Below are positions 9,362 through 27,818 of a stretch of 44,604 nucleotides of DNA, in pieces. Under the pieces are notes generated by a model. That model was not told where the DNA came from and made no database searches. It was given only the letters and a program-made list of their open reading frames with translations. A program made the position numbers and the translations under genes. This DNA comes from Caulobacteraceae bacterium (GTDB lineage Bacteria; Pseudomonadota; Alphaproteobacteria; Caulobacterales; Caulobacteraceae). The stretch is from positions 1 through 44,604 of the forward strand of contig JAFANN010000320.1 of NCBI GenBank assembly GCA_019232665.1. Reading direction: 5' to 3'. Position 1 is the stretch's first letter; each line of letters opens with the position of its first letter.

Positions 9362-9409
9362 GGGGAAGCTCCCGCTTTCGTCCTCTTCGGACACGCTTCC
9401 TTCGCGCCT

Positions 9410-9437
9410 TTGTCACCTAGGGGGGGCATGTTAGCGT
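9410..9437 (+). promoter_or_regulatory. Putative sigma70-type promoter for the phosphoesterase operon
   Basis: TTGTCA-N16-TAGCGT about 40 nt upstream of the TTG start. Confidence 0.3.
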
Positions 9438-9479
9438 CCTGCGGTCGAGCGTGGCCCGCGCATCGGACGGGAGGGGCAG

Positions 9480-10970
9480 TTGGCGAACCAGCTCGGGAAG
9501 ATCGAGCACGTCGTCCAGCTCATGCTGGAAAACCGCTCGTTCGATCACATGCTCGGGTTCCTCTACGCCGACAGCGGCAATGTCTCCCCCTTGGGTCAGC
9601 CGTTCGACGGCCTGACGGGCGAGGAGTCTAACCCGGACGACACGGGAAAGCAGGTCAAGGTCTACAAGATCCAGGCCAGCGATCCGAACCCTTACCTGAT
9701 GCCCGGCGCCGATCCGGGAGAGGGATTCCAGAACACCAACTTCCAGTTGTTCAGCAACGACGACCCAGCGTCCGGCGCGGTTCCGCAGAACAATGGCTTC
9801 GTCGTCAACTTCAAGGCCGCGATCGCCTCCGACATCGCCAACAACTTCAGCGATACGATCCCAGGAACTCAGCCGTCCCAGATCATGGGCATGTACACGC
9901 CCGAGCTGCTCCCGGTCCTGTCAGGGCTCGCCAAGGGCTATGCGGTCTGCGACCGCTGGTTCGCTTCGGCGCCGACCATGACCATGCCGAACCGCGCTTT
10001 CGCGGCGGCCGGAACCTCACAGGGGCATCTGGACGATCATGTGAAGGTGTTCACCTGTCCGAGCATCTTCGGGCGCCTGTCTGACAAGGGCGTCGACTGG
10101 GCGATCTTCGGCTACAACCGAGATTCGCTCACCCAGCAGGACTTCCCTGACACCCAGAGCGCCGACTCAAGCCATTTCGGCCATTTCCGGGACTTCCAGG
10201 ATCGCGCGGCGGCGGGAACCTTGCCGGCCTACACGTTCCTCGAACCGAGCTGGGACGCCACCGGCAACAGCCAGCACCCGAACTACGACGTCTCCAAGGG
10301 CGAGCAGCTCATCCACGACACCTACTACGCCCTCTTCAACGGCAAGGCGTGGACTAGCACTCTGCTGATCATCACCTACGACGAGCATGGCGGGTGCTAC
10401 GATCACGTCGCCCCACCGGCCAATGCGACGCCTCCAGGCGACGGCACAGTGGGCGAGTTCGGCTTCGACTTCACCCGCTTTGGCGTGCGTGTGCCCGCCG
10501 TCCTGGTCTCACCGCTCATCACGGCGGGCACGGTGTTCCGGGGATCGGGGCCGATCGACCATACTTCGGTACTCAAGACCGTTCAGGAGCGGTGGGGCGT
10601 GGCGCCGCTGACCGCGCGCGACAAGGCCGCCGCATCGCTCGGCGACGTCCTGACCCTCGCGCAACCGCGGACGGACGATCCCTTGAGCGGCGTGACGGTC
10701 CCGGCTTCAGCGGTGCTGCATCCCCAGGCCTCGACGCCTTCCAAGATCGACATGATCCAGGCCAAGCGCGTCGCCGCCCTGCCGATCCGCAACGAAAAGG
10801 GGCACTACGGCGAGACCGGCCGGCTTCCGCCACTGTCGTCGGCGGCCGACGTCAGCGACTTCATCCGTGACCGCACCGCCGCCTGGAGCCAGCACGTCCA
10901 GCGCCAGAAGCGGCGGCGGACCAGCGAATCCACGCCCAACCACGGGGGGCGGCCGACGTCCTCGTCCTGA
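9480..10970 (+). CDS. Phosphoesterase family protein (phospholipase C/AcpA family, non-specific PLC-like)
   Basis: [65 protein letters not shown] start after GGAGGGG. No signal peptide visible. Confidence 0.9.
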
Positions 10971-10984
10971 TCGCGGAGGCTTCG

Positions 10985-11662
10985 ATGAACCGGCTGATCC
11001 TGGTGCGTCACGGCGGCAGCACCGCCAACGAGGACAGCAGCTTCTACAACTACAATGACAGCGCGATCTGCCTGACCACCAATGGGATACGCCAGGCGCT
11101 GAACACTGCGGGCGTCCTGGCCCAGGTCGATCCGCGGTGGGCTCGGCCCGGGAACTTCGCCCTCGAGGTGTTCGCCTCCGAATATACCCGCACCCAGCAG
11201 ACGGCGCGCATCACCCTCGACCAGATGGGCCTGTTGTCGGTCGAACCGAGGATCCGGCCGCTGCTCAACGAGCGGGACTATGGCACGGTCTACGATCCAA
11301 GGATGGACACCGATCCGACATTCGACGCCAACGACTCTGAAAGCTCCGTCCGCGCGAAACTGCGCGTGCGGGAGTTCATGGGCGAGATCGATGGACTGCT
11401 CAACCGGGCCGATGTCCTGGCGTTCTCGCACTTCGGCGCGATCCGCGCCCTGGTGGCGGACCTGATCGGACTCACGGACGCACAGATGATGAGCCTGGAT
11501 GTCCCCAACGGGGGCGCGTTCATGTTCTTGCGGACGATCGGCGCCGACGGGACGTCGAGCTACAGCCAGCAGACACTGCCAGACCACGTCCTTCCAAAGG
11601 TCGCCGCCGCGATCACGGCCCCGCCTGCCGCTCCGCCCCCTCTTCGGCAGGGCCCGCGGTAA
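10985..11662 (+). CDS. Histidine phosphatase (phosphoglycerate mutase) family protein
   Basis: LILVRHG, SEYTRTQQTA, LNERDYG and FSHFG motifs. GGAGG RBS, 14 nt after the phosphoesterase stop. Confidence 0.88.
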   Translation: MNRLILVRHGGSTANEDSSFYNYNDSAICLTTNGIRQALNTAGVLAQVDPRWARPGNFALEVFASEYTRTQQTARITLDQMGLLSVEPRIRPLLNERDYGTVYDPRMDTDPTFDANDSESSVRAKLRVREFMGEIDGLLNRADVLAFSHFGAIRALVADLIGLTDAQMMSLDVPNGGAFMFLRTIGADGTSSYSQQTLPDHVLPKVAAAITAPPAAPPPLRQGPR

Positions 11663-13787
11663 CGACGGTCAGCGACATTGCAGGCAGGCGGACGGGCGCG
11701 TCGGGCGCAATTCGGAAGCGAACGGGCGGACGATCCCGCGCCGGGTGACTGTTCACGCCGAGGTCCAGCCATTCGTATTGGGCGGGGGAGTATTGGACCA
11801 CGCTCGCTGAATTGCCCGGAAACCTTGCGGTCCCTCCGGCCTCCTTGAGGCGCAGCGTCATGACGTGGGCGGCGTCGTCGTCCCGGTTCAGAAGCATCAC
11901 CGAAAGCGCGCCGTCCGGGCGACGCAGGGCGTAGGCCAGGACCATCGGACGCCCCTGGGCGTCGCGGGTCTCGCCTGCCGCCGCCCATAGCCTGTGGGGC
12001 TGGTCCGCGGGCGCGCCCCAGTCGTCCATCATCGTCTTTTCGGCGAAGTACATCGGCATTGGCCAGCGCGACTGGCCTTTGGCGTCCGCCTCAAACAGCA
12101 TCATGTCGCCGTAGCCGGCGCACGGGAACGCCTGGTTCGAAGGCCAGCTGGGGGTGGCCCCGAACATGTAGGCGACATCGCCGCCCCGGGAGAGGAAGTG
12201 GCCGACGACGTCGGCCGAGAACAACGCGCTGGGCACGAGGGACATCGCACGTCCCGCGAAGGGCGAAAGCCCATATTCGCTGATCACCCACGGTACTGAT
12301 GTCGGGACGCCGGCGGCGATCGTCTGGTCAAGGATGCGGTCGAGCAGCTGGGTTTCGTCCCGCAGCATCTTTCCCAGAGGTTCGCAGACATCGTCGAAGG
12401 CATAGTGCTCGAAGGAGAAGAACTGCAGCTGGTCCAGCGCGTCCTGCTGGCGCAAGTAGGCGACGAAGCGGCCGATCCACGAGCGACCGCCCTCCGGGAC
12501 CGGCCAGGTGTCGGTCAGCGCGCCCTGCATACTGGGACCGCCCAGCTCGAGTTCCGGGGCCACGGCGTGAATGCGCCGGGCGGCTTCGAGATAGAGGTCG
12601 GCGTAGTCCTCAGGGGCGATGAATTGGCCGTCGGGCTCCTCGCCAAGCTCGAGCCGCCGCACCGGCCAGCCCTGGCGATGGATGTAGCTGGCTTCGGCGG
12701 CCGCGTTTTCGGGCGTGTCGTAGAAGACTCCCGCAGGGACCATCAGGGGAAGGCCCCCGTTGAGGCCCTTGCGAAACATGAACGCCAAACTGGGCTGTTC
12801 GGTCTGGGGATCGCGGTCGATCGCCCGGTGCCAGGGATCGGTCGAGGAGACGTTGACCTGGGTCTGCAGGTTGCGGCCGGCGCCGTGGCGAATGGCGTCC
12901 ACGAAAGCCCCGTCTGCGCCCACGATCCCGAGCCCCAACTCGGAGATGGCGTAGCCGAGACGATCGCGCACGTCCTGGGAGGTGGAAGGGGCGGTGTCCG
13001 AGGAGCGTGTCAGCAGGATCCGAACGAAGCGGACGGCGAGCGGGCTCGGGGCGAGACGGATCGTCTCGTCGCCGGGGAACCGCTCCCGGGTCTGGGATCC
13101 CGCGGGGAAGTCGACCCAGCGGCCGCCGCGATCGAACTCGTCCCTGCCACTCCAGTACTGGACCTCGAAGACAGTGGCATACGGCTCGGCCCAGTCGATG
13201 CGCGCCGCATCGATCTGCTGCGGCTTGTCGAACGTCACGACCACCCATTGAGGCCGGTTCGACGAGCGGCCGGTGAAGCGATGGTCGAGATAGGGATTGC
13301 TCTTCCAGAACGTCGCCAGGTCGCCGTCGTCGAGCCGTGAGTAGCCGGTGTCGTTGGCCTGATCGATGGTGTCGCCGCGCCGAGGAAGGCTGTAGCCCCA
13401 GGTCACGTCCGGATGGCCGCTGGGATGGTCGCTGGAGGTCCAGTAACCCTGCCGGCGCGTCGGGTCGCTCCACTGGCCCTCGTCGCTCCAGTGCCACGCC
13501 TCGATACCGAGCTCGGTGCGCAGGCGATAGGTGGTCCGTCGAAGGCCAGAGGACTTCATCAGAGCGATGTTCCGGGGCGTGAGGATCTCTGCCACCTGGC
13601 CCTTCAGCGCGCCGTCGATCGCCTCACCCAGCGCCATGGCGGGCAAGATCACATGCGAGGGGCCCGCGAGGTCGATCGTGAGGGCGTCCTCGACCGTTGG
13701 AGTGGTCGAAGGCGAATGGGAAAGCGGCGGGCTTGCCCGGGACGCAAGCGCCAGGCCGAGCGCCGCAAGTGTGGAAGGGATGCTCAC
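11613..13787 (-). CDS. Secreted discoidin (F5/8 type C) domain protein with a GH-A-like catalytic barrel
   Basis: GTG start 2 nt after the dehalogenase stop gives a signal-like N-terminus (SIPSTLAALGLALAS). Discoidin pattern LDDGDLATFWKS..PQWVVVTF..RIDW..YATVFEVQY..RFVRI..ISEL; GH-A-like LELGEEPDG, LGGPS, FFSFEHY and VISEYG. Confidence 0.7.
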   Translation of the reverse strand: MSIPSTLAALGLALASRASPPLSHSPSTTPTVEDALTIDLAGPSHVILPAMALGEAIDGALKGQVAEILTPRNIALMKSSGLRRTTYRLRTELGIEAWHWSDEGQWSDPTRRQGYWTSSDHPSGHPDVTWGYSLPRRGDTIDQANDTGYSRLDDGDLATFWKSNPYLDHRFTGRSSNRPQWVVVTFDKPQQIDAARIDWAEPYATVFEVQYWSGRDEFDRGGRWVDFPAGSQTRERFPGDETIRLAPSPLAVRFVRILLTRSSDTAPSTSQDVRDRLGYAISELGLGIVGADGAFVDAIRHGAGRNLQTQVNVSSTDPWHRAIDRDPQTEQPSLAFMFRKGLNGGLPLMVPAGVFYDTPENAAAEASYIHRQGWPVRRLELGEEPDGQFIAPEDYADLYLEAARRIHAVAPELELGGPSMQGALTDTWPVPEGGRSWIGRFVAYLRQQDALDQLQFFSFEHYAFDDVCEPLGKMLRDETQLLDRILDQTIAAGVPTSVPWVISEYGLSPFAGRAMSLVPSALFSADVVGHFLSRGGDVAYMFGATPSWPSNQAFPCAGYGDMMLFEADAKGQSRWPMPMYFAEKTMMDDWGAPADQPHRLWAAAGETRDAQGRPMVLAYALRRPDGALSVMLLNRDDDAAHVMTLRLKEAGGTARFPGNSASVVQYSPAQYEWLDLGVNSHPARDRPPVRFRIAPDAPVRLPAMSLTVVTAGPAEEGAERQAGP

Positions 13788-13789
13788 GG

Positions 13790-14692
13790 TCAGGGCGCGC
13801 TCAGCACCTCCAGCGCCCGACGCGCAATCGGCTCTCCCCACTCCTGTACGAAGTGTCCTGCCTGCGGGACGACCATGGGCTCGGGACAGCCGCGGATCTG
13901 GCGACGCAAGGCTTCCATGTGATCGAGCGGAAATACCGGATCGGCGCCTCCGCATGCCATGAATGCACGTCCGTGCCAGCGATTTGCCCAGAAGTCGCGC
14001 GCCGCTCGGGATTCGGGCACGCCTTGCATCTCGGGGCTGGTCATCACGAGCCGGGGAAATGCCCGTACGCCAGCCTTGTACTGGGCGTCCGGGAAGGGCG
14101 CGTCATAGGCGGCGGCCTCGGCGTCGGAGAGAACGTTTGCGCCTCGCCGCACGAGCGCTCCGACCGCGAGGTCCGGCTGAGTGGCCGCATAGGCGCGCCA
14201 GGCGTCGAAGCCGGGAGTCAGGGGCTCGCCGACGGCGAGGGCGGTGTTCATCACCACGAGGCCGGAAATCCGGGCCCGCGCGCCTTCGTCGGCAGGGAGC
14301 GTGAGCCCGAGCAGGCCGCCCCAGTCCTGCACCACCAGCACGATGCGCCGCAGGTCGAGGCGCTCGATGAGGCGGAGAAGGAAATTGCGGTGGAAGTGGA
14401 AGCTGTAATCGTCATCGTTCACCGGCTTGTCGGACCGGCCGAAGCCAAAGAAGTCCGGGGCGACGACGCGCGCGCCGGACGCCAGAAACACCGGGATCAT
14501 CTTGCGGTAGAGATAGCTCCACGTGGGTTCGCCGTGGAGGCACAGGAACGTGCGGTCCGCGTTCCGCGGCCCTTCGTCGACGACCGCAGCGCGCAAACCG
14601 GCGAAACCTGGAAGATCGTCCAGCCACGTTGGCGTCCATGGGAATCCGTCGAGGCGTGAGAAGCGATCCTCTGGCGTGCGTACGACGTCCAT
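13790..14692 (-). CDS. Haloalkane dehalogenase (HLD-I/DhlA-like alpha/beta hydrolase)
   Basis: LHGEPTWSYLYRKMIPVF, APDFFGFGRSDKP, VQDWGG nucleophile, FDAW, GGADP acid and AGHFVQE histidine. Confidence 0.88.
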   Translation of the reverse strand: MDVVRTPEDRFSRLDGFPWTPTWLDDLPGFAGLRAAVVDEGPRNADRTFLCLHGEPTWSYLYRKMIPVFLASGARVVAPDFFGFGRSDKPVNDDDYSFHFHRNFLLRLIERLDLRRIVLVVQDWGGLLGLTLPADEGARARISGLVVMNTALAVGEPLTPGFDAWRAYAATQPDLAVGALVRRGANVLSDAEAAAYDAPFPDAQYKAGVRAFPRLVMTSPEMQGVPESRAARDFWANRWHGRAFMACGGADPVFPLDHMEALRRQIRGCPEPMVVPQAGHFVQEWGEPIARRALEVLSAP

Positions 14693-14803
14693 GGGTTTAC
14701 TCGCCCCTCTGCGTCCGGCTTCGCCGCCCGCTTCTAACTCTTAGCCGCATGGTCGCAAGGCTCGGCGGCTGTGGCTAGGGTTGCCTGAAAGGGGAGGGGA
14801 CGG

Positions 14804-15211
14804 ATGAGTCGGCTGGCGCTGGGGAGCATCGCGCTTTTGCTGCTTACGGGGTGCGAGAAGCATGCGGCGGTGGCCCTCGCCGATCCGTGTCAAACGCCGC
14901 CGCTATCGCCACCCGCGCACGCGGCGGGGACGACTGACGGCGAGGATGAGCGCGTGACGTTGTGCATGAAGACGGCGGTGCGGGAACTCGACCGCGCTGG
15001 GGGGGCCGTTGAGGTGGTGGCGAAGGTGGCCGTAGCCCGATGCGCCGCCGAGGAACGCGCCGAGTATGCCGCCATGGCGCGCCACGAGCGTGTCTATCAG
15101 TGGGAGAAGGACGAGATGCACGACATGCTGCAGCACTCCGCCCTGCTCAACGCCCGCCAGACCCGCTCGCGCGGTTGCGGCCGTACCGGCGGCGCAGCCG
15201 AGGAGCCTTGA
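14804..15211 (+). CDS. Hypothetical lipoprotein
   Basis: GGGGAGGGG RBS; hydrophobic N-terminus with lipobox LLTG-C; ends 3 nt before the GH84 start. Confidence 0.6.
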   Translation: MSRLALGSIALLLLTGCEKHAAVALADPCQTPPLSPPAHAAGTTDGEDERVTLCMKTAVRELDRAGGAVEVVAKVAVARCAAEERAEYAAMARHERVYQWEKDEMHDMLQHSALLNARQTRSRGCGRTGGAAEEP

Positions 15212-15214
15212 GCG

Positions 15215-16297
15215 ATGTCCATTCCCTTCGCCCAGACGCCGCCCCTCGGGATCATCGAGGGCTATTACGGCCGGCCTTGGTCGTGGGAGGCGCGCGGCCG
15301 CGTGGCGGCGCTGCTGGCCGGCCATGGCTACGAGTTCTTCCTCTATGCGCCCAAGGCCGACGAGTTTCTCAGGAGGCGGTGGCGCGAGCCGCACCCGAAA
15401 GACGAGGCGACGGCGTTGGCGGCGTTCGCCGGGAGTTGCCGCGCGCTCGGGCTCGCCTTTGGAGTGGGTCTGAGTCCGTTCGAGATCTATCTCGCGTTCG
15501 ATTCGGAAGCGAAGGCGGCGCTCTCGGATAAGTTGGCGGAGTTGGATTCCCTTGGCGTCCAGCGACTGGCGATCCTGTTCGACGACATGCGCGGCGACCT
15601 GCCCGATCTCGCGGCGCGGCAGGCGGACATCCTGCACTGGATCGGCGAGCGCACCCGCGCCGAGCGCCTGATCATGTGCCCGACCTACTACAGCGACGAC
15701 CGCTCCCTCGACACCTACTTCGGAGCGCGGCCGGAGGGCTATCTCGAGGCGCTCGGAGCCTCGCTCGATCCTGCCATCGAGGTCTTCTGGACCGGTCCGG
15801 AGGTCTGTTCGCGGGAGCTGAAGCCGGGGCATCTCTCCCGAGTCGCCGCCCAGCTCGGTCGCCGGCCGCTGCTGTGGGACAACTATCCGGTCAACGATGG
15901 ACCGCGGATGAGCCCTTACCTCTACCTGCGGGCCTTCACAGGTCGCTCGGCGGCGATCGCACCGCTGATCGCCGGCCACGCGGTGAACCCTGCCCTGCAG
16001 CCGACCCTGAGCTGCATCCCTGCGCTGACCCTCGCCGAGAGCTACGCGCTGGGGGAGGACTACGACTACGGCGCAGCCTTCCGGCGCGCCGCGTCCGAGG
16101 TGCTCGGCGCGCCGCTGGCGGCCCAGGTCGAGCGGCGGCTCGTGTCGCTGCAGGACGTGGGACTGGACAACCTGGGCGAGATGGCAGCGCGGCTGCGGGC
16201 GCGGTTCGAGGCGTCGGATCATCCGGGGGCGCGCGAGATCGTCGCCTGGCTGGATGGCGCGTGGAGAGTCACGCGAGAGGAGATGGAAGCATCCTGA
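15215..16297 (+). CDS. GH84 beta-N-acetylglucosaminidase (O-GlcNAcase-like), stand-alone catalytic domain
   Basis: GIIEGYYGRPW, LYAPKAD, catalytic LFDD, CPTYY, VFWTGPEV, LWDNYPVND. Confidence 0.9.
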   Translation: MSIPFAQTPPLGIIEGYYGRPWSWEARGRVAALLAGHGYEFFLYAPKADEFLRRRWREPHPKDEATALAAFAGSCRALGLAFGVGLSPFEIYLAFDSEAKAALSDKLAELDSLGVQRLAILFDDMRGDLPDLAARQADILHWIGERTRAERLIMCPTYYSDDRSLDTYFGARPEGYLEALGASLDPAIEVFWTGPEVCSRELKPGHLSRVAAQLGRRPLLWDNYPVNDGPRMSPYLYLRAFTGRSAAIAPLIAGHAVNPALQPTLSCIPALTLAESYALGEDYDYGAAFRRAASEVLGAPLAAQVERRLVSLQDVGLDNLGEMAARLRARFEASDHPGAREIVAWLDGAWRVTREEMEAS

Positions 16298-16306
16298 GCC
16301 CGCCGC

Positions 16307-16771
16307 TCAGTGACCATGGTCCTCGGTGTCGTGATCCTGGGCGGGCGGCGCGCCAGGGACGCCGGGTGGGCAGTCGTCGCCCAATCGGTGGGCGTCGGTG
16401 GAGGCCTCCACGGCGAGCGGCCCGATCTTCACCAGCGCGGTCATCTTCAGGGTGGTCTCGGTGTATTCGCCGTGCCCCGAGATCCCGACGGCGAAGCCCT
16501 TCTTGTCGACGCAGCGGCCGTTGAAGCTGATCTGCCCGTTGGTCGCGGAGTGCTCGGGGTACTGGCAATCGTAGATGTGGTTGCGCGGACCCTGGATGAA
16601 CTTCGCCACGTCCTTGGGCGTGATGCAGCGGCGGTCGATCTTCGTCGAGCCAACCGGGAAGCCGACCTTGTTCACCGACTCCCAATAGCCGGGCTTGATG
16701 GTTTCCTCTCCCCGGGCTGCGCCCGCGCAGAGGGCGACGACCGCGGCCAGGCTGAGGATCGGGGGGCGCAT
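16307..16771 (-). CDS. DUF3617-like secreted protein
   Basis: Signal peptide MRPPILSLAAVVALCAGAARG, IKPGYWE, and four Cys in the pattern CIT..C..C..RLGDDC. Confidence 0.7.
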   Translation of the reverse strand: MRPPILSLAAVVALCAGAARGEETIKPGYWESVNKVGFPVGSTKIDRRCITPKDVAKFIQGPRNHIYDCQYPEHSATNGQISFNGRCVDKKGFAVGISGHGEYTETTLKMTALVKIGPLAVEASTDAHRLGDDCPPGVPGAPPAQDHDTEDHGH

Positions 16772-16838
16772 CGCTTGGCTCAACTCCAGGTTCGAGCGAT
16801 CGGACGGCAAATGCGTACGCGCGTGGTCGGATCAAGGT

Positions 16839-17870
16839 TCACTGGGGCAGCTTGATCGTGGTCGTGGTCTCGTCCTTGGGAACGCCGCCAAGGCCCACAA
16901 GGTCGCGGGCGGTGGTCGAGTTCCGATAGGCGCGGTCGCGGTCGGCCTTTTCGACGTCGTGATCGAATTTCGCGCGGCGGTCCGGCGCGATGTCGTCGAG
17001 GTGGGGAGCCGCGCCGATCGCCGCTCCGAAACGCTGGTCGCAATGCGCCCGCTCCACCGAGGACAGCCCCACGGCCTGGGCGTTCGCGCAGCCCACCAGG
17101 CTGCCGCGCAGGCCAGGCCCCCCGTTGGGCAGGACTCCCCCAGGGTAGGGAACCAGGCCCTGGAGGCGTGAACCGCCGCCCCCGCCGCCTTGCGCCGCGC
17201 CTCCGCCAGGCGCCTCCGCCTGGCGTCCGCCCGGAGGCGGCTGATTGGGGGAGGGGGCCATGGGCAGGGTCGGCACCCCAGCCGGCGCCTCCTTCTCCGA
17301 CTTGTGGATGTTCAGGTGAGGCGCTTGCGGTCCAGGCGCCGTGGCGGGCGCCTGGACGGCGGCAGGCTTGGGCGGGGCGGCGGGCGCTGCGGGCGTCGGA
17401 GCTGGCGTCGGAGCCGGAGCCGGCTCGGGGACGAACTCGGGAATCGCGTTGGGATTGAGGCTCACGCGCGGCGGCTGGCGCGCGACGAGCGGCGCGGCGC
17501 GAGGCGCTTCAACGGTCGGCGTCGGCCGGGCGATGATCGGCGCGGGCGGACTGGGGACCGGCGCAGGCGGGGCAGGGGTGGGCTGGGTGACGGGAGGCTG
17601 GGGCTTCGGCGGAGTCGGCTGAGGCGTCGGCTGCGCTGCAGCGGGGGGGACAGGCTTGGTCGCAGGTGTCTCGGGGATCGGCGGCAGGCGCTCGGGCGGG
17701 ATGATCTGCTCGGGCGGCGTGATCTCCACTTCCATGGGCGGCTGGGGCGGCTGCGGCAGCTGGTATTCGCCCACGCCCTGGACCAGGAACACCGCCAGGG
17801 CGAGGAGGTGAACCATGGCCGAGGCGGCGAACGCCACGACGTTGCGCAAGGATCGACGTCGGCCGGTCAA
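16839..17870 (-). CDS. Membrane-anchored proline-rich (TonB/TolA-like architecture) hypothetical protein
   Basis: N-terminal TM with SAMVHL (TonB-like SxxxH), a long Pro/Ala-rich linker and a small C-terminal domain with two Cys (GCANA..ERAHCDQRFG). Confidence 0.65.
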   Translation of the reverse strand: MTGRRRSLRNVVAFAASAMVHLLALAVFLVQGVGEYQLPQPPQPPMEVEITPPEQIIPPERLPPIPETPATKPVPPAAAQPTPQPTPPKPQPPVTQPTPAPPAPVPSPPAPIIARPTPTVEAPRAAPLVARQPPRVSLNPNAIPEFVPEPAPAPTPAPTPAAPAAPPKPAAVQAPATAPGPQAPHLNIHKSEKEAPAGVPTLPMAPSPNQPPPGGRQAEAPGGGAAQGGGGGGSRLQGLVPYPGGVLPNGGPGLRGSLVGCANAQAVGLSSVERAHCDQRFGAAIGAAPHLDDIAPDRRAKFDHDVEKADRDRAYRNSTTARDLVGLGGVPKDETTTTIKLPQ

Positions 17871-17989: not shown

Positions 17990-18019
17990 TTGACGCTGCG
18001 GCCACCCTCGTTTAGAGAC
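17990..18019 (+). promoter_or_regulatory. Putative housekeeping promoter of the S10 operon
   Basis: TTGACG-N17-TAGAGAC, resembling Caulobacter-type sigma70 promoters, about 250 nt upstream of rpsJ. Confidence 0.5.
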
Positions 18020-18024
18020 CGCGC

Positions 18025-18269
18025 TTCCGATTGAGCCGGCTGTGCCGCGCGGGGCCCGCCCCGCAAGGCAGACGCGGTTCGCAAGACGGAACGGGCCTTC
18101 GCGGTCCGGTTAACGGCCCTCGCGGGACACTCCGCGCGGGCCATTCGTTTTTGCGGGCAGTCGCGTTCGTCCAGCCGGGCCTCAGTCGAGGATCGGCGGG
18201 GCCGGTCTTTGACAAGGCGGATGTGAGCGCGGGGCCTCAAGCCTCGAGGGAAAGTCGAAGTAGAGCGAT
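18025..18269 (+). promoter_or_regulatory. Structured 5' leader of rpsJ (multiple hairpins, terminator-like stem, boxA-like motif)
   Basis: Nested pairings at 18025-18091, a hairpin at 18092-18108, a GC stem at 18115-18142 followed by ATTCGTTTTT, and GGTCTTTGACAA at 18204-18215. Confidence 0.55.
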
Positions 18270-18578
18270 ATGGATCGTCAGAACATCCGCATCAGGCTCA
18301 AGGCCTTCGATCACCGGGTCCTGGATCACTCCACCCGGGAGATCGTGAACACCGCCAAGCGCACCGGCGCCACCGTGCGCGGCCCGATTCCGCTGCCGAC
18401 GCTGATCGAGCGCTTCACCGTCAACCGCTCGCCGCACATCGACAAGAAGTCGCGCGAACAGTTCGAGATCCGCACCCACAAGCGGGTGCTGGATATCGTC
18501 GACCCGACCCCCCAGACCGTCGACGCCCTGATGAAGCTCGACCTGTCGGCCGGTGTCGACGTCGAGATCAAGCTCTAA
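18270..18578 (+). CDS. rpsJ: 30S ribosomal protein S10 (NusE)
   Basis: [35 protein letters not shown]. Confidence 0.99.
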
Positions 18579-18588
18579 GGGGGCGACC

Positions 18589-19338
18589 ATGCGTACCGGA
18601 GTCATCGCCCGCAAGCTCGGCATGACCCGCCTCTTCGACGAGGCGGGGACCCACGTGCCCGTGACCGTGCTCAGCCTCGACGGCTGCCAGGTCACCGGCC
18701 AGCGCACCAAGGACCGCGACGGCTACGTCGCCCTCCAGCTGGGCGCCGGCGCCAAGAAGGCCAAGAACACCATCCAGGCCCAGCGCGGGCAGTTCGCCAA
18801 GGCGCTCGTCGAGCCCAAGCGCTGCATCGCGGAATTCCGGGTCACCGAGGACAACCTGATCGACGTGGGCGCGGAGCTGACCGCCGACCACTTCGTCGCC
18901 GGCCAGAAGGTCGACGTCTCCGGCGTGACCGTCGGTAAGGGTTTCGCCGGCGCGATGAAGCGCTGGAACTTCGGCGGGCTGCGCGCCACCCACGGCGTGT
19001 CCGTGTCGCACCGCTCCCACGGATCAACTGGCCAGCGCCAGGATCCGGGCAAGGTGTTCAAGGGCAAGAAGATGGCTGGCCACATGGGCCAGGAGAAAGT
19101 CACCACGCTCAACCTGACGATCCACCGGGTGGATGTCGAGCGCGGCCTGATCCTGGTGCGCGGCGCAGTGCCGGGCGCCCAGGGCTCGTTCGTCAAGATC
19201 CGCGACGCGATCAAGATCGCCGCGCCGGCCGATGCGCCGCGTCCCGGCGCGTTCCGCGCAAGGACGTCCGAGGCTCCTGCCGCCGAGACGCCCGCCCCCG
19301 AAGCGCCGGCCGCCGACGCCAGCGAGACCGAGGCCTGA
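18589..19338 (+). CDS. rplC: 50S ribosomal protein L3
   Basis: [45 protein letters not shown]. Start set at the ATG after the rpsJ stop. Confidence 0.99.
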
Positions 19339-19339
19339 C

Positions 19340-19978
19340 ATGAAGATCGACGTCATCACCCTCGACGGCGGGTCCGGCAAGGCGCTGGAACTGCGCGACG
19401 ATATCTTCGGCATCGACGACATCCGCGCCGACATCCTGCACCGCTGCGTCACCTGGCAACTCGCCAAGCGCCGCGCCGGCACGCACAAGATCCAGGTCCG
19501 TAACGAGGTTTCGCGTACGGGCAAGAAGATGTACCGGCAGAAGGGCACCGGCGGCGCCCGGCACGGTTCGCGCCGTGCGGCTCAGTTCGTCGGCGGCGCC
19601 AAGGCGCACGGTCCTGTCGTCCGCAGCCACGCCTTCGACCTTCCCAAGAAGGTCCGCGCTCTGGCCCTGCGCTACGCCCTGTCCTCCAAGGCCAAGTCCG
19701 GCGCCCTTGTGGTTCTCGAAGACGCACGGCTGGACGAACCCAAGACGGCGACCCTGCGCGGCCGCTTCGCCAGCCTGGGTCTCAAGAACGCCCTGATCAT
19801 CGCCGGGCCCGAGGTGGACGCGAACTTCAAGCTGGCAGCCCGCAACATCCCGGACGTGGACGTGCTGCCGAACGCCGGTCTCAACGTCTACGACGTGCTG
19901 CGCCGCCACACCCTGGTCCTCACCCGCGCGGCCGTCGAAGCCATCGAGGCCCGCTTCGAAGCGAAGGAAGCCGCGTGA
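19340..19978 (+). CDS. rplD: 50S ribosomal protein L4
   Basis: [31 protein letters not shown]. Confidence 0.99.
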
Positions 19979-20274
19979 TGGCCGCCACAGCTCGTCACTA
20001 CGACACGATCCTGGCGCCGCTCATCACTGAGAAGGCGACCCAGCTCTCCGACCAGAACAAGCTGGTCTTCAAGGTCGCCCTGGACGCGACCAAGGAAGAG
20101 ATCGCCCAGGCGGTCGAGGAGCTGTTCAAGGTCAATGTCGTGAAGGTCAACACCTTGATTCAGAAGGGCAAGACCAAGCGCTTCCGCGGCCGTCCAGGCC
20201 AGCGGTCGGACATCAAGAAGGCCATCGTGACGCTGCGCGAGGGCCAGTCCATCGACATCACGACGGGGCTCTGA
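19978..20274 (+). CDS. rplW: 50S ribosomal protein L23
   Basis: PLITEKA, KKAIVTL; TGATG coupling with rplD. Confidence 0.98.
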
Positions 20275-20284
20275 GGGTAGGGTC

Positions 20285-21121
20285 ATGGCTCTGAAGAATT
20301 TCAATCCGACCTCGCCCTCGCGTCGCGGGCTGGTGCTGGTCGACCGCTCCGAGCTGCACAAGGGCCGGCCCGAGAAGTCCCTCGTAGAGGGATTGACCAA
20401 GTCGGGCGGACGCGGCGGCGGCGGGCGCATCTCCACGCGCTTCCGCGGCGGCGGCGCCAAGCGGCTGTACCGCGTCGTGGACTTCAAGCGGCGCAAGTGG
20501 GGCGTCCCCGCGACCGTCGAGCGTCTGGAGTACGATCCCAACCGGACCGCCTTCATCGCCCTGGTGCGCTACGCTGACGGCGAACTCGCCTACATCCTCG
20601 CCCCGCAGCGCCTGAAGGTCGGCGACGAGGTCGTGGCGAACGAGCGCGTGGACGTGAAGCCCGGTAACGCTTCGCCCCTGCGCAGCCTCCCGGTCGGCAC
20701 GATCATCCACAATGTCGAGCTCAAGCCGCTGAAGGGCGGTCAGATCGCCCGCAGCGCCGGCGCGTACGCCCAGCTGGTCGGCCGTGACGCAGGCTACGCC
20801 CAGATCCGCCTGAACTCGGGCGAGCTTCGCATGGTGCCCGACAGCTGCATGGCCACGATCGGCGCGGTGTCGAACCCGGACCACATGAACGAGGTCCTCG
20901 GGAAGGCCGGCCGCGTCCGCCACAAGGGCCGTCGCCCGCACGTCCGCGGCGTCGCCATGAACCCGATCGACCACCCGCACGGCGGCGGCGAAGGCCGCAC
21001 CTCGGGCGGCCGTCACCCCGTCACTCCGTGGGGCAAACCCACCAAGGGTCGCAAAACCCGCACCAACAAGGCGACGGACAAGCTCATCATCCGTTCGCGC
21101 CACGTCAGGAAGGCCCGCTGA
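20285..21121 (+). CDS. rplB: 50S ribosomal protein L2
   Basis: [30 protein letters not shown]. Confidence 0.99.
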
Positions 21122-21399
21122 TGACCCGTTCCGTATGGAAAGGCCCGTTCGTCGACGGCTATCTGCTCGACAAGGCGGAAGCCGCCCAATCGTCGGGCCG
21201 CAAGGACGTGATCAAGACCTGGTCGCGCCGCTCGACGATCATGCCGCAGTTCGTGGGCCTCACCTTCGGCGTCCACAATGGCCAGAAGCACGTCCCCGTC
21301 CTCGTCTCCGAGGACATGGTGGGCATGAAGCTCGGGGAGTTCGCTCCCACGCGCTACTTCCCCGGCCACGCCGCCGACAAGAAGGCCAAGAGGAAGTAG
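21121..21399 (+). CDS. rpsS: 30S ribosomal protein S19
   Basis: [28 protein letters not shown]; TGATG coupling. Confidence 0.99.
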
Positions 21400-21400
21400 C

Positions 21401-21781
21401 ATGGGCAAGTCCGTCAATCCGCGCCGCGTTGGCGCCGATTCCGCGATGAGCAAGGTGCGCACGCTGCGCACCAGCGCGCGCAAGCTGAACCTCGTCGCCC
21501 AGTCCATCCGTGGGCTGAAGGTGCAGCGCGCCCTCAACGAGCTGGAATTCAGCCCCAAGCGCATCGCCGCCGACGTGCGCAAGGCCCTCTACTCGGCGAT
21601 CTCGAACGCCGAGAACAACCACGGCCTGGACATCGACAACCTGGTGGTCGCCGAAGCCTATGTCGGCCGCAACCTGGTCATGAAGCGCTTCTCCGCACGC
21701 GCCCGTGGGCGTTCGTCGCGCATCGAGAAGCCGTTCTCGGAGATCACCATCGTGGTTCGTGAACTGGGCGAGGTCGCCTGA
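21401..21781 (+). CDS. rplV: 50S ribosomal protein L22
   Basis: [24 protein letters not shown]. Confidence 0.98.
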
Positions 21782-22539
21782 TGGGTCAGAAAGTCAATCC
21801 AGTCGGTCTGCGGCTCGGCATCAACCGGACCTGGGACAGCCGCTGGTTCGCGAGCGGGCACGATTATTCGCGCCTGCTGCACGACGACCTGAAGCTGCGC
21901 AAGGAGCTTAAGAGGCGCCTGCAGCAAGCGGGAGTGTCGCGCATCCTGATCGAGCGTCCGCACAAGAAGTGCCGCGTGACCATCTATGCCGCACGCCCGG
22001 GCGTGATCATCGGCAAGAAGGGCGCCGACATCGAGAAGCTCCGTTCGGACCTCTCGAAGATGACCGAGGGCGATGTCCACCTGAACATCGTCGAGGTGCG
22101 CAAGCCCGAGACCGACGCGCAGCTGGTGGCCGAGAACATCGCCCAGCAGCTCGAGCGCCGGATCGCCTTCCGCCGCGCGATGAAGCGCTCGATGCAGTCG
22201 GCCATGCGCCTAGGCGCCAAGGGTGTCCGCGTCGAGGTGGCCGGCCGTCTGGGCGGCGCCGAGATCGCTCGCGCCGAGTCCTATCACGAGGGCCGGGTGC
22301 CGCGTCACACGCTGCGCGCCGACATCGACTACGGTTTCGCCGAAGCGAAGACGACCTACGGGATCATCGGCGTGAAGACCTGGATCTTCAAAGGCGAGGT
22401 CCTCGAGCACGACCCGATGGCGCTGGACAAGCGCCTGGCCAGCGAGACCGGCGCAGCCGGCGAGGGCCCGGGACGAGACCGCGGCGAACGCGGGGAGCGG
22501 GGCCCGCGCCGGGAACGGCGCGAAGCGCCGGCGGCCTGA
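21781..22539 (+). CDS. rpsC: 30S ribosomal protein S3
   Basis: [42 protein letters not shown]. Confidence 0.99.
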
Positions 22540-22555
22540 GCTTAAGGGTTAGATC

Positions 22556-22987
22556 ATGCTGTCCCCGAAGAAGACGAAGTACCGCAAGCAGTTCAAGGGC
22601 CGCATCCATGGCATGTCCAAGGGTGGCTTCACGCTGAACTTTGGCTCGCACGGCCTCAAGTCGCTGCAGCCCGAGCGCGTCACCGCGCGCCAGATCGAAG
22701 CCGCCCGGCGGGCGATCACCCGCCAGATGAAGCGTCAGGGCCGGGTGTGGATCCGGATCTTCCCGGACGTCCCGGTCAGCGACAAGCCGGCCGAAGTCCG
22801 CATGGGCAAGGGCAAGGGCGCGATCGAGTACTGGGCCGCGCGCGTCGCGCCGGGCCGGATCATGTTCGAGGTGGACGGCGTGCCAGACGACGTCGCGCGC
22901 GAAGCCCTGCGCCTTGGCGCGGCCAAGCTGCCGGTCAAGACGCGCATCGTCACCCGTATCGGCGAAGCCGCGGTCGAGGCTGCGTAA
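22556..22987 (+). CDS. rplP: 50S ribosomal protein L16
   Basis: [26 protein letters not shown]. Confidence 0.99.
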
Positions 22988-22991
22988 GACC

Positions 22992-23186
22992 ATGAAGATC
23001 GATGACGTCCGCCGCATGAGCGCCGACGAGCTCTCCGACGAGCTGCTGTCGCTCAAGAAGGAACAGTTCAACCTGCGTTTCCAGGCCGCCACCGGGCAGC
23101 TCGAAAAGACGCACCGGGCCCAGGAAGTCCGCCGGGACATCGCCCGCATCAAGACCGTGATGCGCGCGAAGTCGGCGAACGCCTGA
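22992..23186 (+). CDS. rpmC: 50S ribosomal protein L29
   Basis: [27 protein letters not shown]. Confidence 0.98.
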
Positions 23187-23205
23187 GTCAGCAGAGAAGA
23201 TCGAG

Positions 23206-23457
23206 ATGCCCAAGCGAATCCTCGAAGGCGTGGTGGTCTCCGACAAGGAGAACAAGACGGTGATCGTGCGCGTCGAGCGCACCTTCCTGCACCCGCTGCT
23301 CAAGAAGACCGTGCGCCGCTCCAAGCGCTACCACGCCCATGACGAGACCAACTCGTACCATGAAGGCGAGATCGCTCGGATCATCGAGTGCGCGCCCAAG
23401 TCCAAGCTCAAGACGTGGGAGGTCCTGCCGAAGGACGCCTCCCCGACCGGCGCCTGA
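23206..23457 (+). CDS. rpsQ: 30S ribosomal protein S17
   Basis: [26 protein letters not shown]. Confidence 0.98.
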
Positions 23458-23472
23458 GGGAGCGGCTGAACC

Positions 23473-23841
23473 ATGATTCAGATGCAGACCAACCTCGAGG
23501 TCGCCGACAACTCCGGCGCGCGCCGGGTGATGTGCGTGAAGGTCCTCGGCGGCGCCAAGCGCCGCTACGCCGGCGTGGGCGACAAGATCGTCGTCTCCGT
23601 CAAGGAAGCGATCCCGCGCGGCCGCGTGAAGAAGGGCGACGTCCTGCAGGCGATCGTCGTGCGCACCAGCTCGGCGATCAAGCGCCGCGACGGCTCGATC
23701 ATCCGCTTCGACAAGAACGCGGCGGTGATCGTGAACAAGCAGTCGGAGCCGATCGGCACGCGCATCTTCGGACCCGTGCCGCGCGAGCTCCGGGCGAAGA
23801 ACCACATGAAAATCATCTCCCTCGCCCCCGAGGTGCTGTGA
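23473..23841 (+). CDS. rplN: 50S ribosomal protein L14
   Basis: [30 protein letters not shown]. Confidence 0.99.
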
Positions 23842-24155
23842 TGGCTGCGAAGATCAAGAAGGGCGACCGGGTGATCCTGATCGCCGGCAAGGACAAGGGC
23901 CGCACCGGCGTGGTCGAGCAGGTCATGCCGAAGGAGGACCGCGTGATCGTGGGCGGCCTCAACCTGGTGCAGCGCCATACGCGTCCGACCCAAGGCGATC
24001 CGCAGGGCGGCATCAAGACCAAGGCCGCGAGCATCCATGTGTCCAACGTCGCCCTGGTCGACAGCAACGGAAAGCCGACCCGCGTCGGATTCCGCGTCGA
24101 GGGCGAGAAGAAGGTGAGGGTGGCCAAGTCCACCGGCGAGGTCGTCAATGGCTGA
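23841..24155 (+). CDS. rplX: 50S ribosomal protein L24
   Basis: KOW motif [23 protein letters not shown]; TGATG coupling. Confidence 0.98.
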
Positions 24156-24720
24156 GACCGAAACCGCGTACGAACCGCGGATGAAGACCGAATATCGCCA
24201 GCGCATCCGCAAGGCGATGAAGGACAAGTTCGCCTACACCAACGAGATGCAGATCCCGAAGATCGACAAGATCGTCGTGAACATGGGCATCGGCGAAGCC
24301 GTGACGGACTCCAAGAAGGCCGCTTCGGCGATGAAGGACCTCGCCGCGATCACGGGCCAGAAGCCCGTGGCGACCAAGGCGCGCACCTCGATCGCCGGCT
24401 TCAAGCTGCGTGAAGGCATGGTGGTGGGCGCCAAGGTGACCCTGCGCGCCGACCGTATGTACGAGTTCCTGGATCGTCTTATCACCATCGCCCTGCCGCG
24501 GGTGAAGGACTTCCGGGGTCTCAAGCCGACGAGCTTCGACGGCCGTGGCAACTACGCCATGGGTCTGCGCGAACACCTGGTGTTCCCCGAGATCAACTAC
24601 GACGAGATCGACCAGATCTGGGGCATGGACATCATCGTCTGCACCACCGCGAAGTCCGATGAGGAAGCTCGTGAGCTCCTCCGGGAATTCCACTTCCCGT
24701 TCACCCAGGCCCAGGCCTGA
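24148..24720 (+). CDS. rplE: 50S ribosomal protein L5
   Basis: [33 protein letters not shown]. Confidence 0.99.
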
Positions 24721-24747
24721 GCCGAGAACGGGCAAGGAGAACCATTC

Positions 24748-25053
24748 ATGGCCAAGAAGAGCGCCGTCAACCGCAACGAACGCGTCCGCAAGCTGGTGAA
24801 GCAGTTCGCCGCCAAGCGCGCCGCGCTTAAGGCGACCGCCGAGAACGACAACCTCTCCCTCGAGGAGCGGTTCGAGGCTCGTTTGCAGCTCGCCAAGCTG
24901 CCGCGCAACTCCGCGCCGACCCGCATCCGCAACCGCTGCGAGGTGACGGGCCGTCCACGCGCTTTCTACCGGAAGCTGAAGATGAGCCGTATCGCCCTGC
25001 GCGAACTGGGATCTGCCGGGCAGATTCCCGGTCTCGTGAAGTCGAGCTGGTGA
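24748..25053 (+). CDS. rpsN: 30S ribosomal protein S14 (long, Zn-free type)
   Basis: [32 protein letters not shown]; 101 aa. Confidence 0.98.
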
Positions 25054-25063
25054 GGAGGGCGAG

Positions 25064-25459
25064 ATGGTGAACGATCCCCTCGGCGATATGATCGCCCGCA
25101 TCCGCAACGCCGCCCAGCGTAAGCGGTCCAAGGTGCTGACGCCCGCTTCGCGGATGCGCGAGCGCGTGCTCGATGTGCTGCTGTCGGAAGGCTACATCCG
25201 CGGCTTCACCCTCGTGCAGGAGCCCGGCGCCTTCCCGCAATTCGAGGTCGAGCTGAAGTACTTCGACGGCCAGCCGGTCATCGCCGAGATCTCTCGCGTG
25301 TCGAAGCCGGGCCGCCGGGTCTATTCGTCGATCGGCGATCTCAAGCCGGTGAAGAACGGCCTGGGCATCTCGATCCTTTCGACGCCCAAGGGCGTGATGT
25401 CGGACACCGCGGCGCGCAGCGCCAACGTGGGCGGCGAAGTCCTCTGTCAGGTGTACTGA
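25064..25459 (+). CDS. rpsH: 30S ribosomal protein S8
   Basis: [27 protein letters not shown]. Confidence 0.99.
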
Positions 25460-25460
25460 G

Positions 25461-25994
25461 ATGTCCCGGATCGGCAAGAAAGCGATCGCCATCCCCTCTG
25501 GGGTGACCGTCACCCTGCAGGGCCAGACGGTGACCGTGAAGGGGCCGAAGGGCCAGCTGGCCTGGACGGTGAGCGACGAGATCGAAGTGGCCCAGGCCGA
25601 CGGCCAGGTGAGCTTCACCCCTCGGTCGGAGTCCACGCGCGCCAGGGCGATGTGGGGTCTCTCCCGCACCCTGATCAACAACATGGTCGTGGGTGTCACC
25701 AAGGGCTACGAGGAGACCCTCGAGCTCGTCGGCGTCGGCTATCGCGCGGCGATGAAGGGCCAGGCGCTCAACATGCAGCTGGGGTTCTCCCACGAAGTGG
25801 ATGTCCCACCCCCGGCCGGCATCACCTTCGCGGTGCCGCGCCCGGTCGAGATCAAGATCTCGGGCATCGACAAGCAGCTCGTGGGCGAGATCGCCGCCAG
25901 GATCCGCAAGATCCGCCCGCCCGAGCCCTACAAGGGCAAGGGCGTCCGCTACGGCGGCGAGACTGTCCGGCGCAAGGAAGGCAAGAAGAAGTAA
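25461..25994 (+). CDS. rplF: 50S ribosomal protein L6
   Basis: [25 protein letters not shown]. Confidence 0.99.
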
Positions 25995-25995
25995 G

Positions 25996-26355
25996 ATGGC
26001 CCTCTCACCGCGAGACATCACCAAGAAGCGCGCCGAGCGCGTTCGCCGCCGCCTCCGCACGGTGGGCGGCGGTCGTCCGCGCCTGTCGGTCTTCCGTTCG
26101 GCGAAGAACATCTACGCCCAGGTCATTGACGACGAGCGCGGCGTGACCCTGGCGGCGGCCTCCTCGCTCGAAGAGGGCGAGAAGGGTTCGAAGGGTTCGG
26201 ACAAGGCGGCGGCCGCGAAGGTCGGCGCCCTGGTCGCCCAGCGCGCGATCGAGAAGGGCTGCAAGGAGGTCGTCTTCGACCGCGGCGGTTACATCTATCA
26301 CGGCCGGATCAAGGCGCTGGCTGACGCCGCGCGTGAAGCCGGCCTGAACTTCTGA
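25996..26355 (+). CDS. rplR: 50S ribosomal protein L18
   Basis: [30 protein letters not shown]. Confidence 0.99.
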
Positions 26356-26372
26356 TTTGGAAAGGCTTTAGC

Positions 26373-26972
26373 ATGGCCCGTGGCGAACAGCAGCGCGGCG
26401 GCGGAGAGCGCCGGGACCGGCGCGACCGGAACAAGCCCGAAGAGCGGGCCGATTCCGAAATCGTCGAGAAGCTGGTGCACATCAACCGCGTCGCCGCCAC
26501 GGTGAAGGGCGGCCGGCGCTTCTCCTTCGCCGCCCTTATGGTGGTGGGAGACCAGAAGGGCCGCGTCGGCTTCGGCCACGGCAAGGCTCGCGAGGTCCCC
26601 GAAGCCATCCGGAAGGCGACCGAGGAAGCCAAGAAGTCGATGATCCGCGTGCCGCTGCGCGAATCCCGCACGCTGCACCACGACGGGGCGGGGCGCTGGG
26701 GCGCTGGCAAGATCATGATGCGCGCGGCGCCTCCCGGCACCGGCGTGATCGCCGGTGGTCCGATGCGCGCCGTGCTCGAGACCTTGGGCGTGCAGGACGT
26801 GGTGGCCAAGTCGGTCGGCTCGTCCAACCCCTACAACATGATCCGCGCCACCTTCGAAGCGCTGAAGGAACAGGCCTCGCCCCGCCAGGTGGCGGCCAAG
26901 CGCGGCAAGAAGGTCAGCGACATCGTCGAGCGGCGCTCCGACTCCGCCAGCGGCGAAGCCGTCGAAGCCTGA
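26373..26972 (+). CDS. rpsE: 30S ribosomal protein S5
   Basis: [24 protein letters not shown]. Confidence 0.99.
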
Positions 26973-26993
26973 GCCGACCGGGGATTTTAGAAC

Positions 26994-27203
26994 ATGGTAA
27001 AGTCCAAGGCCGAGCCTAAGGCCGCCAAGCTCACCGTCCGCCAGACGGCCAGCCCGATCCGTCGCAAGTTCGACCAGCGCGCCACGCTCGTGGGCCTGGG
27101 CCTGAACCGGATCGGCCGCACCGTGACCCTCGACGACACGCCCGCGATCCGCGGGATGATCGCCAAGGTCGCCCACATGGTCGAAGTCGTTTCGGCCGAA
27201 TAG
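26994..27203 (+). CDS. rpmD: 50S ribosomal protein L30
   Basis: [32 protein letters not shown]. Confidence 0.97.
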
Positions 27204-27211
27204 TCCGCATA

Positions 27212-27291
27212 CCCCCAACGCTCAGGCGAAGGGGGACCCCGTCCTCCGAAGCCTTGGCGTAGGAGGAAGCCGAGTCGGGCGCGAGCCCGGC
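27212..27291 (+). repeat. Three tandem palindromic hairpins (REP-like) between rpmD and rplO
   Basis: CCCCC-AA-CGC-TCAG-GCG-AA-GGGGG; TCCTCC-GAA-GCC-TT-GGC-GTA-GGAGGA; GTCGGGC-GCGA-GCCCGGC. Confidence 0.5.
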
Positions 27292-27317
27292 GACAGATCT
27301 CCTAGGAGAGGCGCCAG

Positions 27318-27812
27318 ATGACCAAGCTCAACGAACTCGCCCCGAGCCCGGGCTCGACCCAGTACAAGACCCGCGTCGGACGCGGCCCGGGATCGGGCAA
27401 GGGCAAGACCGGCGGCCGCGGCGTGAAGGGCCAGAAGTCCCGGACGGGCGTGGCCATCGCCGGCTTCGAGGGCGGCCAGATGCCGCTGCACATGCGGATG
27501 CCCAAGCGCGGCTTCAACAACCCGCGCGCCCTCGACCTGGCCGAAGTCAACTTCTGGCGTCTCGAGCAGGCGATCGCCGCGGGCAAGCTGGACGCTTCCA
27601 AGCCGATCGATGCGGCCGTTCTCGTCGAAGCCGGCGTGCTTCGCCGGGCGAAGGACGGCGTGAAGCTGCTCGCCAAGGGCGAGCTGAAGTCGAAGCTCCA
27701 GATCACCGTATACGCGGCCTCGGCCTCCGCCCGCGAGGCGGTCGAGAAGGCCGGCGGCTCTCTCACCGTGACCCGCCCGCAACCGGCCGAGGCGGAGGCT
27801 TCCGCGGGCTGA
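27318..27812 (+). CDS. rplO: 50S ribosomal protein L15
   Basis: [32 protein letters not shown]. Confidence 0.99.
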
Positions 27813-27818
27813 TCTCGA

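Follow-up and report, generated by a model that had tools for sequence, protein, structure and literature searches.

A boxA element like that of the rRNA leader, and an S8-site-like hairpin, in a conserved structured leader of rpsJ in the Caulobacteraceae

The stretch of DNA analysed here (the window, 44,604 nt) carries the S10-spc operon of a bacterium whose family, to judge from its closest named S10 relatives (Caulobacterales, Phenylobacterium and Caulobacter records), appears to be the Caulobacteraceae. The first gene of the operon is rpsJ, coding for ribosomal protein S10, which is also NusE; it stands here without tuf upstream and is preceded by unrelated genes. The run from rpsJ to adk (18270-29942) would form a transcription unit of roughly 12 kb, the length that the earlier note on this DNA had given, consistent with a promoter-like site before rpsM (TTGACC, 17 nt, TATAAC at 29972-29999), which suggests that the alpha operon is transcribed separately. 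After rpoBC, positions 8168-17870 hold unrelated genes with weak potassium-channel-like, phosphoesterase-like, phosphoglycerate-mutase-like and glycosidase-like matches; the str operon does not follow rpoBC, and its rpsL is found on contig C225.

Upstream of rpsJ a predicted sigma70-type promoter would start transcription near position 18025 and so produce the leader listed in Table 1. All 48 family leaders have a TTGAC-16/18-YA arrangement whose distance to the 5' hairpin is constant, and in each of them the promoter-like site is found about 210 nt upstream of boxA. A consensus promoter scan misses the rpsJ promoter because its TAGAGA is without the last consensus T; the same -10 hexamer is shared by the promoter of the genome's own rrn operon (G000:C267). 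RNA-library contigs for one relative (L289) span boxA and continue into rpsJ in three of four runs; those from two studies begin about 20 nt past the predicted start and two others reach upstream beyond the promoter, strand and start not being fixed by contigs of this kind.

Table 1. Features of the rpsJ leader and its operon, and loci with related elements in other genomes.
Feature	Position or locus	Strand	Basis or remark
Predicted sigma70-type promoter of the S10-spc operon (TTGACG, 17 nt, TAGAGA)	17990..18018	+	
Conserved structured 5' leader of rpsJ, about 245 nt	18025..18269	+	
5' hairpin with S8-site-like internal loop	18033..18080	+	Core 18038-18043 GGCTGT and 18070-18075 AGACGC
Long-range helix, 18079-18090 with 18145-18156, around variable stems and the GC hairpin	18079..18156	+	Pair counts in alignment A1; duplex controls
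GC hairpin, then U-rich tract	18115-18142	+	RNAalifold
Helix, 18161-18172 with 18216-18231, around the boxA region	18161..18231	+	Duplex controls; fold of this genome
Hairpin described in the earlier note	18174..18197	+	-13.0 kcal/mol; differs in sequence among family members
Competing 13-bp hairpin, which by prediction covers the entire boxA in this genome	18185..18213	+	-19.0 kcal/mol
boxA element CGGTCTTTGACAA	18203-18215	+	ATG of rpsJ (18270) 54 nt downstream
rpsJ (S10 = NusE), first gene of the operon	18270..18578	+	NCBIfam above cut-off
rpsH (S8), candidate ligand of the 5' hairpin	25064..25459	+	NCBIfam above cut-off; same gene run as rpsJ
rpsL upstream regions with S8-like hairpin	L404, L411-L415, L418, L422, L424, L425, L430, L431		
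S8-like hairpin locus	L332:1501-1545		
Rhizobium-family tuf-rpsJ spacers with hairpin and boxA-like motif	L075, L079, L094, L297, L299, L301, L302, L305, L315		

The boxA-like motif before rpsJ, first pointed out in the earlier note for its likeness to the E. coli boxA quoted there, has the sequence and the place described (9 of 12 positions identical), although this match alone lies within chance, 10 sites in the window reaching the same level. The comparison with the genome's own rrn boxA, which the same note had proposed, gave 11 of 12 identical positions. That rrn leader was located by motif scan, the 16S family search of the genome having given nothing, and reads TTGACA, 17 nt, TAGAGA, then TCGATCTTTGACAT, then the 16S start; rrn boxA lies about 65-105 nt past the rrn -35 box. 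TCTTTGA(C/A)A is present in 31 of 31 rrn leaders examined, namely its own and 30 relatives' loci, the latter from a search of 50 genomes of which 39 matched. With a scoring matrix trained solely on the 30 family rrn boxA sites, the rpsJ site holds the joint top score with two other sites in the 3.83-Mb genome, where GNTCTTTRAMA occurs 12 times; the rpsJ boxA 11-mer is also found at two unrelated sites, one of them inside a repeat family. What lifts the rpsJ motif above chance is its identity with the rrn boxA together with the matrix score and its presence throughout the family, set against 12 of 1920 shuffled leaders with the pattern.

The last two positions of the motif differ from the rrn form in most relatives: the rrn C is replaced by A in 41 of the 48 family rpsJ sites, and the final A is lost in 13. 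The position that varies most is the N of the published consensus GYTCTTTAANA, a gammaproteobacterial one (PMC5725501), which none of the 48 sites fits. As a separate observation, a family of dispersed repeats, apparently intergenic and possibly palindromic, starts with a boxA-like (G/A)GTCTTT(A/G)ACA followed by CGGAGGACACGGAG repeats (G000:C155, C237, C355, C360, C119, C328 and C59). In E. coli-type rrn operons boxA is also described in the 16S-23S spacer (PMC8632103); the spacer DNA scanned here (L132 and L265-L267, from three family genomes, two of them partly covered) gave no boxA-like match.

Regions upstream of rpsJ were fetched for 49 of 56 matching Caulobacteraceae genomes, and in 48 of the 49, from 22 of 23 genera, GNTCTTTGA(A/C)H is found 35-91 nt upstream of the rpsJ ATG. 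The pattern was scored in all 83 family loci, always within this same range, and all 29 further genomes from one genus carry it; GGTCTTTGA does not vary among the 35 aligned leaders, nor does its 3' part, TTTGA, among the 83 loci. The distance from boxA to the ATG is thus constrained while the predicted length of the leader spans about 180 to 307 nt. The sole genome without the element, G017, still has tuf joined to rpsJ, 69 nt upstream, and its rpsL leader has the 5' hairpin and lacks boxA, from which it appears that boxA tracks the start of rpsJ and not simply the head of the operon.

The conservation in the Alphaproteobacteria by which the earlier note proposed to judge the element thus stands for the family, but the strict pattern was not found before rpsJ in two wider samples. 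The first comprised 20 genomes of four other families in the order, fetched out of 47 matches, and a loose pattern occurs in two of them; the second comprised 80 genomes of the class, chosen out of 158 matches among the better-scoring that had upstream DNA, and a loose pattern occurs in one. Among 80 named loci, boxA occurs in 11: seven close Caulobacteraceae-like records, one other member of the Caulobacterales (L102, 134 nt from the ATG) and three Rhizobium/Ensifer records. The Rhizobium family has a strict boxA before rpsJ in 4 of 30 loci and a loose one in 7 of 30, 84-99 nt upstream; three of five rrn leaders checked there carry the motif as GTT(C/T)TTTGACAA variants and one is without a match. 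The tuf-rpsJ spacers of that family hold a GC hairpin and then directly the boxA-like motif, 84-99 nt before rpsJ, and the C-to-T variant is common to the rrn and rpsJ motifs in G322, not in G359. A boxA-like site was seen in one of 30 rpsL leaders. Related genomes are not independent of one another: the boxA of the 48 family genomes probably goes back to a single gain, and those outside the Caulobacteraceae would be separate gains.

Around the invariant boxA block the leader is built of helices in series, as seen in an alignment of 35 leaders (A1; 50% mean identity, with invariant blocks). No terminator was called at the GC hairpin and its U-rich tract; antitermination by boxA could not act on the sole terminator-like stem of the leader, since that stem comes before it. 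For the helix that brackets boxA, the within-genome duplex beats cross-genome duplexes in 20 of 20 permutations. The hairpin that the earlier note placed just before boxA does exist, but it competes with, and is outcompeted by, the stronger 13-bp hairpin (-19.0 against -13.0 kcal/mol), which is the strongest local boxA masking of its kind among the 83 loci. The G/GT-rich stretch after boxA, once likened to boxC, is more plausibly the 3' arm of the bracketing helix and is variable in the family; with no conserved boxC-like sequence after boxA, the proposed boxB-boxA-boxC layout finds no support. Missing from that first description were the larger structured leader and the S8-like hairpin at its 5' end. 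Rfam gave no family at gathering score in the window (three chance-level matches by E-value) and none in 16 relative loci except one intron.

The 5' hairpin, in which GGCNGU faces A(R)ACGC, is found in all 83 family loci, its core invariant bar two variable positions. In 47 sequences, picked with this same motif as anchor, 96% of cells are paired and 9 of 13 pairs compensatory, and none of 500 shuffles reaches as high; the hairpin model has a single strong match in the genome itself (E 1.8e-10). The S8 core in 16S helix 21 consists of G597-C643 and U598-A640 with 641-642 bulged (PMC4176348). The equivalents of G597, U598, A640, A642 and C643 are all invariant in the 83 hairpins, on a paired stem with a two-base bulge, and the G beside the C-G pair is invariant as well, but one variable base precedes the G597 equivalent. 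A scan of the family rRNA places the hairpin core in 16S solely at helix 21, and at one conserved site in 23S. This 23S site fits the core letters about as well as helix 21 does and lies, we presume, near an L2 contact. The hairpin model itself scores no match to 16S helix 21.

The genomic positions of the hairpin are what favour S8 as its ligand, for it is met at the heads of rpsJ and rpsL and at rplE-rpsN. Where tuf is split off in family genomes the hairpin precedes rpsJ, and it is absent before rpsL in all three such split-operon genomes that were checked. Before rpsL it does occur in G017 and, among 30 other alphaproteobacteria, in 12, the background rate being 0.6%. Five of these rpsL-leader hairpins were confirmed by the model (E up to 0.04), some show a C-G to U-A change, and those checked have no Rfam match; we regard the rpsL-heading form as a candidate class-wide r-leader in its own right. 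One genome, G127, has a copy over the rplE stop, just before rpsN-rpsH (L368:1812-1854, minus strand) and downstream of the L2 and L4 genes, as well as an S8-like hairpin before rpsL. A general S8-like site at rplE-rpsN was rejected, only 2 of 60 genomes showing one. A genome-wide search with the hairpin model was limited to 73 candidates per genome at most and overlooked known cases; it matched 9 of 80 genomes, several by chance. In the leader studied here the hairpin sits upstream of rpsH within the same operon, and we consider it likely that it binds spare S8. Since 8 of 20 order relatives have the hairpin before rpsJ without boxA, boxA appears to be the later addition.

The two ends of the leader can also pair with each other. 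In place of its own hairpin, the 5' strand can pair with the 5' half of boxA, in 79-83 of 83 leaders at six of the eight pairs, and when transcripts that stop just past boxA are folded, this helix prevails in 63 of the 83. Imposing the S8-type fold opens boxA in 55 of the 83 leaders and closes it in 14, and the mean unpaired probability of boxA rises from 0.41 in the free leaders to 0.57. For the present genome the values are 0.11 free and 0.01 with the S8-type fold; access to boxA would here have to be transient, because the 13-bp hairpin wins in both states. Three further signs of masking or switching were looked at. The bases just 5' of boxA are biased to pyrimidine in 42 of 48 rpsJ leaders against 11 of 30 rrn leaders, a bias which we rejected as a unique sign of the masking helix, since it is also accounted for by a weak stem that holds boxA in its loop. 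We likewise rejected a conserved hairpin that would cover boxA from the downstream side, as in 19 of 20 it did not outperform partners taken across genomes. A switch in the accessibility of the ribosome site was unsupported by full-length folds: pairing of boxA went with a more open site in 15 of 55 and with a less open one in 6 of 55.

One may read the leader as a two-input switch for ribosomal proteins, answering to S8 and to NusB-S10. Without bound S8 the leader would refold and its 5' strand hide boxA; spare S8 would lock the first hairpin and expose boxA, and NusB-S10 would then load an rRNA transcription complex on the mRNA and shut the S10-spc operon. We think this full scheme rather unlikely and put the link between S8 and boxA forward as a hypothesis, given that boxA is masked in both states in this very genome, that the pyrimidine bias has a second explanation and that the full-length folds are split. 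If true, an rRNA-mimic r-leader would here act through the Nus machinery, and the spc regulator that has been missing throughout the Alphaproteobacteria would be the S8-type hairpin.

The proteins that a Nus-type mechanism would call for are encoded in the genome, with nusB, nusA, nusG, rho and a SuhB-like phosphatase all present, the last as a match below the equivalog cut-off. As a side observation, rho gives two strong partial matches on different contigs (G000:C131:35220-36101 and C210:4057-4836), so that either the assembly has split the gene or a second copy exists. In front of the genome's own nusB and its three genes of the inositol-phosphatase family no boxA was found, and none of the 12 genome-wide matches to the boxA pattern lies on the nusA or nusG contigs; this absence at the other Nus genes fits a single autoregulated Nus gene per species (PMC5725501). 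The rpsJ coding sequence is C-rich (C/G of 1.25-1.8 in most 60-nt windows), compatible with Rho loading, and the C-richness extends into rplC, hence is not specific to rpsJ.

NusB-NusE binds boxA, and at E. coli suhB the full Nus complex represses translation, upon which Rho termination follows (PMC5725501); the repression survived insertions that moved boxA as much as 100 nt further from the Shine-Dalgarno sequence (PMC5725501, Baniulyte et al. 2017). We hold it very likely that NusB-S10 binds the boxA of the rpsJ leader. That its loading represses the operon is the reading we lean towards, with somewhat less than firm confidence, the direction, repression and not activation, being taken by analogy with suhB. 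Excess S10, as NusB-S10, would load on boxA of the nascent leader RNA and lower the initiation of rpsJ translation, and the reduced translation would bring Rho polarity and with it lower expression from rpsJ to adk; spare S8 on the 5' hairpin would be a second input.

Were boxA to act instead as it does in rrn operons, it would load a fast, Rho-resistant Nus complex that runs through the 12-kb S10-spc unit and raises its expression. The near-identity of the rpsJ and rrn boxA, the length of the operon, the suppression of pausing and Rho termination by rrn-type complexes (PMC8632103) and the boxA-like site in one of the rpsL leaders would all suit such antitermination, and the 5' hairpin alone could then give the negative feedback, as in the order relatives without boxA. 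The placement, however, is of another kind: boxA occupies the leader's 3' end, past the U-rich stem and at a constrained distance from the start codon, and not at the spacing from a -35 box given above for rrn. By activating its own operon S10 would moreover enter a positive feedback, and the tested case of boxA on an E. coli mRNA, suhB, is repressive (PMC5725501). We regard antitermination as the main rival, though an unlikely one.

The sequence of boxA might also have been kept as an RNA-pairing element of the leader, with no Nus binding and with the S8-like hairpin as the one regulator. Its 5' half can find a partner in the 5' strand of almost every leader, that helix dominates most nascent folds, and boxA is predicted to be masked in this genome. 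The 5'-strand helix nevertheless leaves the invariant TTTGA unexplained, the motif as a whole is that of the rrn boxA, and rpsJ is preceded by a similar motif in the Rhizobiaceae (4 of 30 by the strict pattern, 7 by the loose one) and in three gammaproteobacterial genera, so that we find the pairing role improbable. More remote still is a role as DNA: the TTGACA within the motif would be the -35 hexamer of an additional promoter, a view against which the earlier note had already argued, or a transcription factor would recognise the motif. TTGACA occurs here and in 7 of 48 relatives, but the other 41 have TTGAAA, TTGAAC or TTGAAT, TA at the -10 position is found in only 2 of the 48, and no promoter was called on it; the promoter-like site further upstream is present throughout, and the RNA contigs that cover boxA and run into rpsJ agree with it, though contigs cannot prove a start.

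The idea of boxA control at rpsJ, put forward in the earlier note, is not new. A search of 940 gammaproteobacterial genomes, and of these only, for GYTCTTTAANA within 50 bp predicted a boxA before rpsJ in Colwellia, Saccharophagus and Teredinibacter, and NusE autoregulation was proposed from it (PMC5725501). Nus control at rpsJ had thus been predicted, and what our searches did not find described are its alphaproteobacterial form, its near-universal retention in a family and its pairing with an S8-like leader. A full-text literature search gave no paper on boxA or an S8-type rpsJ leader in the Alphaproteobacteria, though supplements could list the leader; in the part of the PMC7247131 supplement that was covered, Caulobacter, rpsJ and boxA were not found. 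The rpsL motif of Pelagibacter is said to be unlike S7, S8 or L4 sites (PMC2704228), and rpsL attenuators are described as having no common feature (PMC2965389). According to a 2024 review, spc control outside the gammaproteobacteria is unknown and the L4 leader narrowly distributed (PMC10931766). The present leader offers defined sites, in a family with a laboratory model, for spc control and for NusE autoregulation at rpsJ. If the element is repressive, the rRNA operons and the largest ribosomal-protein operon would compete for one pool of NusB-S10, and the supply of ribosomal proteins would be directly coupled to rRNA synthesis.

Among known systems, the E. coli S10 leader (the uL4/NusA attenuator) and the L2-Alphaproteobacteria r-leader are likewise structured leaders of the S10 operon, but unlike them the rpsJ leader has no Rfam match; identity with the L2 r-leader (PMC7247131) was rejected, that being an rplB motif whose first rows and taxa are Rhodobacteraceae, with a different sequence. 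The 5' hairpin shares with the uS8 site of the E. coli spc operator and 16S helix 21 (PMC4176348, PMC3616713) the GU facing A-N-A-C and the two-base bulge, its G adjoins a C-G pair as in the G595-(C596-G644) triple of T. thermophilus (PMC4176348), and as with the E. coli operator rpsH lies in the gene run that would be controlled. It differs in one extra variable base on the 5' strand and in its place, which is 210-280 nt upstream of rpsJ or, where it heads rpsL, about 170-235 nt upstream of that gene, and not at the start of rplE. The boxA follows a hairpin, as in the rrn boxB-boxA-boxC leader, with which it shares its near-identical sequence; unlike the rrn element it is on an mRNA, near a start codon and about 180 nt past the predicted start, and the stretch after it is a variable helix arm that differs from the continuation of the rrn leader. 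Like the boxA of the three gammaproteobacterial genera it stands upstream of rpsJ, where NusE autoregulation was proposed from sequence, yet theirs lies 16-32 bp upstream and is not the near-universal family trait seen at 35-91 nt in the Caulobacteraceae. Closest in design is E. coli suhB, where boxA also lies in the 5' UTR of a Nus-factor gene, apparently the one boxA-bearing Nus gene of the genome, and ours falls within the distance over which suhB repression worked; it differs in that the rpsJ case, known from sequence, has the form GGTCTTTGA, is set inside a long structured leader and heads a 12-kb operon.
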